IMG/VR virus record: IMGVR_UViG_3300013136_000004
Coordinates: 1-53,700 of that record
Reading direction: 5' to 3' (one strand)
Length of the DNA: 53,700 bases
DNA from: a virus
Taxonomy: Duplodnaviria; Caudoviricetes
The stretch's first letter is position 1. Every line of letters starts with the position of its first letter. A program made the translations under genes and the position numbers. Below, piece after piece: positions 42,216 through 42,503 of this stretch. The notes beneath the pieces are model-generated. The model saw only the letters and a program-made list of their open reading frames with translations, was not told the DNA's origin and did no database searches.

Positions 42216-42503
42216 ATGATAAAGCTTTTCGTCAAGTATAAAGGGCATATAAAGTGAATTGCATGCGAAGAAGCAGTTCAGCTTCTTCCATTTATTAAAG
42301 AAGAAGATAGGCGTATATACCCTGTCGATTCATCAGATTTAGATGAAGCAAGAGAAGTCCTTACTGAAATGGCTTGGTATCAGTTAGTAGATAAAGGAAA
42401 AGATGGTGTAGTTCCTATTCTTGTAATAGATAAAAATGACAATAATTTTACGGCTGAAAAATACTTCGGACAAGATGTTATTGATAAATTGAAAAATCTA
42501 TGA
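42216..42503 (+). CDS. Glutaredoxin/thioredoxin-like selenoprotein (UxxC; TGA at 42255 read as selenocysteine), 95 aa
   Basis: Not in the ORF track. AAAGGAG RBS, then MIKLFVKYKGHIK-TGA-IAC...VVPILVI...KYFG; open for 81 codons after the TGA; ends in an ATGA overlap with the next gene; hairpin GAAGAAGC-AGTTCA-GCTTCTTC 9 nt after the TGA. Confidence 0.78.
42267..42288 (+). promoter_or_regulatory. Putative bacterial SECIS element
   Basis: 8-bp perfect stem, 6-nt loop with G at position 2, 17 nt between the UGA and the loop. Confidence 0.62.

Follow-up and report, generated by a model that had tools for sequence, protein, structure and literature searches.

A phage gene interrupted by an in-frame UGA codon probably encodes a selenocysteine-containing glutaredoxin-like redoxin

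The IMG/VR virus record IMGVR_UViG_3300013136_000004 (Duplodnaviria; Caudoviricetes) is a linear sequence of 53.7 kb with a GC content of 39%, which CheckV estimates to be ~55% complete; this whole stretch, from position 1 to 53,700, is referred to here as the window. Between an open reading frame (ORF) at 41633-42058 and another at 42500-42928 lies a 441-nt stretch in which no standard ORF is called. We propose that this apparent gap holds a plus-strand gene (42216-42503) that probably encodes a glutaredoxin-like redoxin of 95 residues containing selenocysteine (Sec, U). In its active-site motif, U14-I-A-C17, the attacking residue would be Sec rather than cysteine (Cys), inserted by the machinery of the host at an in-frame TGA (codon 14, 42255-42257). 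The coding sequence is supported by its read-through translation and by homology to relatives that carry Cys, and the proposed Sec codon aligns with the first Cys of the CxxC motif in these relatives.

An initial annotation, made from the sequence alone, had described such a gene, and inspection of the locus recovered every element that it named: a promoter-like motif (42159-42187, plus strand; TTCTCA, 17 nt and TATAAT, scoring 10 of 12 sigma-70 matches in a consensus scan), a Shine-Dalgarno sequence (AAAGGAG, 42203-42209, plus strand) read directly six bases ahead of the ATG at 42216, the TGA at 42255 and the quoted translation. Beyond this TGA the frame stays open as far as a second TGA (42501-42503), which overlaps the start codon of the next gene as ATGA. 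Gene callers indeed miss the gene, as had been asserted, since all they report of it is a 44-residue ORF (42369-42503; P0002) corresponding to the last 44 residues of the protein. Neither the internal ATG at 42369 nor the ATG at 42500 is preceded by a Shine-Dalgarno sequence; given the promoter motif and the strong ribosome-binding site at the head of the gene, this architecture needs read-through. The downstream ORF (42500-42928, plus strand, 142 aa), which has weak matches to helix-turn-helix (HTH) and DNA-binding PHROGs, shares the ATGA with the upstream stop and has no Shine-Dalgarno sequence of its own, and is therefore probably translationally coupled to the redoxin gene.

Support for the TGA extends beyond the assembly of the record itself. 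Five lake-water metagenome runs from 2020 contain 0.99-1.00 of the sampled words of 41600-43000, and Logan contigs of two of these runs, X1 (41600-43000, depth 7.5) and X5 (41600-42552, depth 9.4), show no difference from the window, TGA included. As these separate assemblies are identical across the codon, an assembly error is ruled out and the TGA is fixed in that population. Runs X6 and X7 yielded short pieces only, with the gene outside their coverage, and no RNA run was found among the runs matching the sampled words.

Relatives of the protein were sought by an exhaustive phmmer search of 1.84 billion representative sequences, in which 12 matches to the window protein were obtained at E <= 0.001; one of these is the 44-residue call made on the window itself (P0002), and another, a repetitive sequence of 217 residues (P0012), was excluded from every alignment. 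A word-index search with the family alignment A1 added P0014 and P0015, and cluster look-ups added P0016-P0019, whereas the same word-index search returned nothing with the single window protein and nothing new with the 15-member alignment A3. Judged by these searches, the family of the predicted read-through protein is rare and uncurated. In the column of the TGA, Cys is found in five full-length relatives (CVAC in P0003, CQGC in P0013, CFDC in P0009 and P0015, and CIDC in P0014), which bears out the earlier placement of the codon at the first Cys of a CxxC motif. All five share an N-terminal strand, MxxLF(V/Y), ahead of CxxC. BLASTP aligned the window protein with P0003 over residues 1-95 at 44% identity, thus spanning the TGA, and by a count from the alignment 6 of the 13 residues ahead of the TGA are identical. 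Since all five Cys forms are called from a start aligned with residue 1, callers handle this family correctly where no stop interrupts the frame.

The homologues do not uniformly carry Cys, however: besides the five Cys forms, seven other lineages are recorded only as N-terminally truncated gene calls, and every one of these calls starts downstream of the U column. The lineage of P0007, P0016 and P0017 (8 contigs, the longest 7.5 kb, from the Joint Genome Institute (JGI) and Logan) starts at a GTG, given as V in the JGI entry, aligned with residue 15, i.e. U+1, and that of P0010, P0018 and P0019 (6 contigs) at residue 16, i.e. U+2, with the sequence MCEES. P0005 (V) and P0008 start at residue 21, P0004 at residue 22, and P0006 and P0011 (L) further downstream than residue 22. 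As read from the alignment, the conserved C-E-E/Q-A at 17-20 leaves 15, 16, 21, 21 and 22 as the earliest positions where a start codon could lie. The first residues of four JGI entries (V, V, M and L) are those that literally translated start codons would give, indicating that the truncated JGI calls are not contig-edge fragments. The nearest relatives of the window protein (52-57% identity) are all N-truncated, and the Cys forms stand at 35-46%. This pattern of truncation would be expected if several diverged lineages shared a stop in this column, and not from a private nonsense mutation. A tree of 15 rows (none dropped), computed from the C-terminal 59-99 residues common to them, resolved only the Cys clade of P0009, P0014 and P0015 (100/100) and was uninformative on the number of Sec/Cys exchanges.

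Searches for further loci were negative. Profile and protein searches of viral contigs found no related locus with the window protein, with alignments A1, A2 or A5, or with P0009; the same was true of metagenome contigs searched with alignment A2 or P0016, and of genome contigs searched with alignment A2 or A5. Tblastn against GenBank phages gave no match with the window protein, P0016, P0003 or P0009, the exact 39-nt window pattern had 0 matches in viral contigs, and the neighbouring DUF7873 protein, used as a query for syntenic phages, found nothing.

Immediately 3′ of the TGA lies a hairpin that is a candidate Sec insertion sequence (SECIS; 42263-42291, plus strand). Its core, GAAGAAGC-AGTTCA-GCTTCTTC at 42267-42288, begins nine bases after the TGA and consists of a perfect 8-bp stem (42267-42274 / 42281-42288) closed by the loop AGUUCA (42275-42280), just as the initial annotation had it. 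The core hairpin folds at -11.4 kcal/mol, and at -13.1 kcal/mol when AUG/CAU is added with a bulged C at 42266; this extended hairpin (-13.1 kcal/mol) is also the minimum-energy structure of the 48 nt counted from the UGA. It persists (-11.1 kcal/mol) without the first 12 nt, which would be covered by a ribosome positioned at the UGA. Numbered from the U of the UGA, the loop spans nt 21-26 and its second base is G; in E. coli fdhF, folded identically as a control, the loop GGUC occupies nt 22-25, so that the SECIS-like placement claimed at the outset was borne out. Bacterial SECIS elements, according to the available part of PMC1088965, are stable stem-loops that follow the UGA closely and have a small apical loop containing G. 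Among plus-strand TGA triplets of the window, the fold of nt +10 to +45 ranks 12 of 1153 in stability. The 3′ arm of the stem encodes Leu-Leu (CUU CUU), pairing with GAA GAA (Glu-Glu), and this Leu-Leu pair is present in the window protein and in the truncated P0016, P0005, P0008 and P0004, and missing in all five Cys forms as well as in P0018, a truncated lineage that covers the position. Drawn from protein sequence, this distribution may hint at conservation of the hairpin, as a lead only.

As to the fold, the initial annotation had assigned the protein to the thioredoxin fold, a claim that stood in part. When the six full-length members (alignment A7) were compared by hhalign with E. coli NrdH, GrxA and GrxC, a probability of 37% (P 3.5e-4) was obtained, and the alignment matched both CxxC Cys, the VD in the second strand and the VP of the cis-proline with these proteins; with all 15 members (A3) the probability was 23%. 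V66 and P67 do not vary across the family (15 of 15 members). Pfam Glutaredoxin was matched by only 2 of the 15 members at all, namely P0003 (E 0.017, 15.7 bits, profile positions 3-57 of 60) and P0013 (E 0.0044, 17.6 bits), both below the gathering cut-off of 22.9. By ESM Atlas features, P0003 resembled small viral hypothetical proteins and glutaredoxin clusters (0.90-0.92). The order of elements in two AlphaFold models with predicted local distance difference test (pLDDT) scores of 62 and 59, i.e. strand, helix, strand, helix, two short strands and helix, is compatible with a thioredoxin-type fold. A profile search of PDB sequences gave chance-level matches only (E >= 0.24), NCBIfam gave nothing better than E 0.024, and the one PHROGs match (E 0.0079) is of unknown function; the window protein is placed by none of Pfam, PHROGs and NCBIfam. 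The alignment of CxxC and VP with glutaredoxins lends the proposed fold sub-threshold support, and the Pfam scores and the model confidence fall short of establishing it; given these sub-threshold scores, we name the protein glutaredoxin-like and do not class it as a member of PF00462.

If the UGA is a Sec codon, expression could proceed as follows. A phage promoter belonging to the gene itself would drive transcription, and the strong Shine-Dalgarno sequence would direct translation. With the ribosome at the UGA (42255), host SelB carrying Sec-tRNA(Sec) would, by analogy with bacterial Sec decoding, bind the hairpin 9 nt downstream, whose loop, AGUUCA, would expose G22-U23. Sec would then be inserted at codon 14, 81 further codons would be translated, and termination within the ATGA overlap would couple the next gene. 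The host would presumably possess selA, selB, selC and selD, and the protein would be expected to act as a disulfide or selenylsulfide reductase.

Four other accounts of the interrupted frame have to be weighed against Sec insertion. A recent TGY-to-TGA nonsense mutation could have inactivated a Cys-type redoxin in this phage population, leaving the hairpin as a coincidence; one base change from TGT or TGC is enough, hairpins of like quality follow 1-3% of TGA triplets by chance, and both the stop in the relatives, deduced from protein calls, and the five runs, which may be one population, leave room for it. Such an event is unlikely, with a remaining frame that is intact and has kept 52-57% identity to its nearest relatives, a stop that falls on the one catalytic residue, seven other lineages that lack a called N-terminus and all start after the same codon, and a downstream gene that would be left without a Shine-Dalgarno sequence unless read-through occurs. 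Less likely still is read-through without selenium, in which a near-cognate tRNA (Trp or Cys) or a suppressor would yield a low level of full-length protein and the hairpin would be a stimulator or play no role. Here the UGA column is that of the nucleophilic Cys of CxxC, where bacterial glutaredoxin and thioredoxin selenoproteins have U (PMC13188914, available sections); Trp as the CxxC nucleophile would inactivate the protein, and the distance and G-containing loop of the hairpin match the fdhF SECIS control. What can be said for selenium-free decoding is that sequence alone cannot separate Sec from another residue at the UGA, that the host Sec machinery is itself postulated, and that the window has neither a tRNA(Sec) nor a SelB domain.

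A third account takes the TGA as a true stop: the frame would encode a 13-codon leader peptide, the hairpin with its U-rich tail would serve as an attenuator or terminator, and the product would be made from a downstream start. The hairpin is flagged as terminator-like and callers report the 44-residue ORF at 42369-42503, yet homology to the N-terminal strand of the Cys forms extends over the 13 residues ahead of the TGA, the ATG at 42369 has no Shine-Dalgarno sequence, and a fragment beginning downstream of the first strand and CxxC would lose most of the glutaredoxin-aligned region; we regard this arrangement as quite improbable. Some phages and hosts decode TGA as Trp or Gly, so that genome-wide reassignment (code 4 or code 25) also comes into question. 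In a crude, greedy gene set restricted to the plus strand (n=81), TGA is the stop of 30 ORFs, besides ending the redoxin gene itself (42501), which excludes reassignment across the genome as far as such a count can, and makes it barely conceivable as an explanation here. Moreover, reading TGA through yields no further convincing gene in the window: two other candidates (40338-40682 and 48932-49330) were rejected, having no redox motif at their TGA positions.

Sec insertion remains the reading we favour, with a number of observations weighing against it. In the tests that were run, on homologues, assemblies and hairpin placement, none of the outcomes named in the initial annotation as refuting it was observed. 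Of the 1154 TGA triplets of the window, 30 satisfy loose criteria for a SECIS-like geometry, and the 53.7 kb contain 21 distinct sites (29 rows) with a perfect hairpin of at least 8 bp and a loop of 3-8 nt; by the chance tests on TGA triplets, the hairpin taken alone is a ~1-3% coincidence. When 60 nt are folded, a rival structure is preferred (-14.7 vs -11.4 kcal/mol) in which the UGA itself is paired (UGAAUUGC with GCAGUUCA) and a second hairpin forms, and the consensus scan flags the SECIS candidate as terminator-like because of its CATTTATT tail. In Rfam searches, nothing on the window reached the gathering score, and the stretch 42150-42400 yielded only three irrelevant weak matches at E <= 10. 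On the protein side, Pfam assigned 0 families to the window protein, the two AlphaFold models reach pLDDT values of 62 and 59 only, and Foldseek with the first of them found 0 matches in the PDB at E <= 0.001. The stop at the U column of the truncated relatives, and its identity as TGA, are deduced from protein calls and stay putative. All five metagenome runs are lake-water samples from 2020 and may include the source of the window itself, so that a fixed TGA is established for one population and not for independent lineages. Finally, the window, which covers ~55% of the phage, holds no tRNA and no SelB wing domain (SelB-wing_3).

Beyond the single gene, we lean towards the view that this is a phage-borne selenoprotein family, in which UGA and SECIS have been kept through the divergence of at least six lineages, found in several metagenome sources and all truncated by callers. 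Such phages would routinely borrow SelB and tRNA(Sec) from the host and so produce, while infecting it, a selenol redoxin that works faster, and the Sec codon would mark a Sec-decoding host range. The suggestion in the initial annotation that the host is probably anaerobic carries little weight, as Sec users are 40.4% aerobic and 35.8% anaerobic (PMC5029168, available part).

Around the redoxin gene, the upstream unit ending with ORF 41633-42058 is followed by a stem-loop (42056-42150, plus strand), an inverted repeat with 15-nt perfect arms (42060-42074 / 42136-42150), an inner hairpin and a T-run after it. It folds at -33 kcal/mol (z -5.74), and 0 of 200 shuffles fold equally well; the structure is probably the terminator of that unit. 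It is bigger than the usual intrinsic terminator. The promoter motif TTTCNGAAAANNAATATATAAT occurs in four plus-strand copies in the window (31400, 35778, 42166 and 46228) against 0.13 expected, and in an alignment of the four it lies within a conserved block of ~30 nt (TTCTCAATTTC..GAAAA..AATATATAAT) that extends upstream, probably representing a phage-specific promoter class. Every copy lies on the plus strand, ahead of gene blocks. Apart from this region, a 137-nt direct repeat (84% identical) is found at 7812-7948 and 9721-9857, in two intergenic gaps 1.9 kb apart; it is distinct from the promoter motif described above, and may represent another class of regulatory element.

The phage also encodes a clamp-loader subunit, a gp32-like protein, RecA, a flap endonuclease, a helicase, a primase and a portal protein. 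A DnaE-type DNA polymerase III alpha of 1131 residues (26658-30053) combines PHP, NTPase and finger domains with a C-terminal domain of the uracil-DNA glycosylase superfamily. A radical S-adenosylmethionine QueE-like ORF (20086-20781), QueC (21226-21915), GTP cyclohydrolase I (21917-22849) and a QueF-like protein with an intein splicing domain (23217-24665; Pfam QueF E 6.7e-34, Intein_splicing E 2.4e-10) lie next to one another and form a 7-deazaguanine pathway, probably for DNA modification. The nearest large terminase (TerL) of a cultured phage, from a Thermoanaerobacterium phage, is 39% identical, and the nearest cultured-phage DnaE proteins are 27-35% identical and come from assorted hosts; these relatives are too distant for a host to be named. 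Also encoded is a caspase-domain protein (Peptidase_C14, 2885-3700, E 1.3e-15). In the region 35944-39098, parts of an SbcC-like protein, i.e. an AAA_23 N-terminal ORF (35944-37179) and an SMC_N C-terminal ORF (38487-39098), look split around an SbcD-like phosphoesterase (Metallophos, 37211-38251), with a small ORF between the latter and the SMC_N ORF. A tandem array of 5.5 copies of the 22-nt unit TAAAAAAGTTTATACCCGGTAT (50269-50389, 96% matches) lies ~60 nt upstream of the TerL gene (50450-52153); it may serve as a site for packaging or terminase binding, or else as a regulatory array.

With regard to precedent, the remark that few if any phage selenoproteins have been described agrees with the literature searched: full-text searches, covering the main text of papers as far as available, found no phage-encoded selenoprotein in print. 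In their available parts, two reviews of prokaryotic selenoproteins (PMC13188914 and PMC9312934) never mention 'phage' or 'virus', and the 2026 review does not use 'viral' either. The viral selenoproteins named in the available text of PMC8310308 are poxvirus glutathione peroxidases only, and viral sequences are described as absent or very few in families other than three metalloprotein ones in the accessible portion of PMC9402790. If our reading is true, a phage gene relies on a specialised form of host recoding, which would constrain host range and help to predict it. Standard gene calling would then systematically hide such genes, every database entry of the putative Sec lineages being truncated, and the locus would provide a compact natural phage cassette of UGA and SECIS for tests of SelB specificity.

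Compared with known systems, the protein resembles NrdH and the T4-type phage glutaredoxins and thioredoxins that act as ribonucleotide reductase donors in being a small phage-borne CxxC redoxin whose CxxC, VD and VP align with those of E. coli NrdH; these proteins have Cys where Sec is proposed here. NCBIfam gave P0003 weak NrdH and YruB-type glutaredoxin-like matches (E 0.15 and 0.06), far below cut-offs, and a scan of the 30 large window ORFs revealed no ribonucleotide reductase gene. Like the SECIS of E. coli fdhF, the phage hairpin is a stem-loop that follows the UGA by a few bases, has G-U in its loop and carries a single bulged base in the 5′ strand of its stem. It differs in the loop (GGUC in fdhF, AGUUCA here), in the bulge (a U near the loop in fdhF, a C at the base of the stem here) and in its stem, a perfect 8-bp A/G-rich helix; the specificity of SelB varies among species.

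Among viruses, the glutathione peroxidases of the poxviruses molluscum contagiosum and fowlpox are likewise selenoproteins dependent on host Sec machinery, with the fowlpox SECIS lying in the coding region (PMC8310308, available text), but they belong to eukaryotic viruses, use eukaryotic SECIS and SBP2, come from another protein family and were acquired from the host. Basilisk-like Bacillus phages, for which tRNA(SeC) is predicted, provide a link between phages and Sec decoding; in the available part of that report (PMC6145125) the link consists of the tRNA prediction, with no selenoprotein gene reported, whereas the present window has no tRNA. Sec-containing glutaredoxins and thioredoxins with UxxC are among the listed bacterial selenoprotein families, and the bacterial glutaredoxins of this type (PF00462; e.g. 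that of Clostridium oremlandii; both from the available sections of PMC13188914) are alike in layout, with ~90 residues, U in place of the first Cys after strand 1, a hairpin within the coding sequence shortly 3′ of the UGA, and existing Cys homologues. Bacteria are known to have UxxC redoxins whose SECIS lies in the coding sequence, and a phage-encoded one appears to be undescribed; the bacterial genes are chromosomal and the present one is phage-borne, in a family that scores below the Pfam cut-off, whose second helix region is longer and which has its own C-terminal helix.

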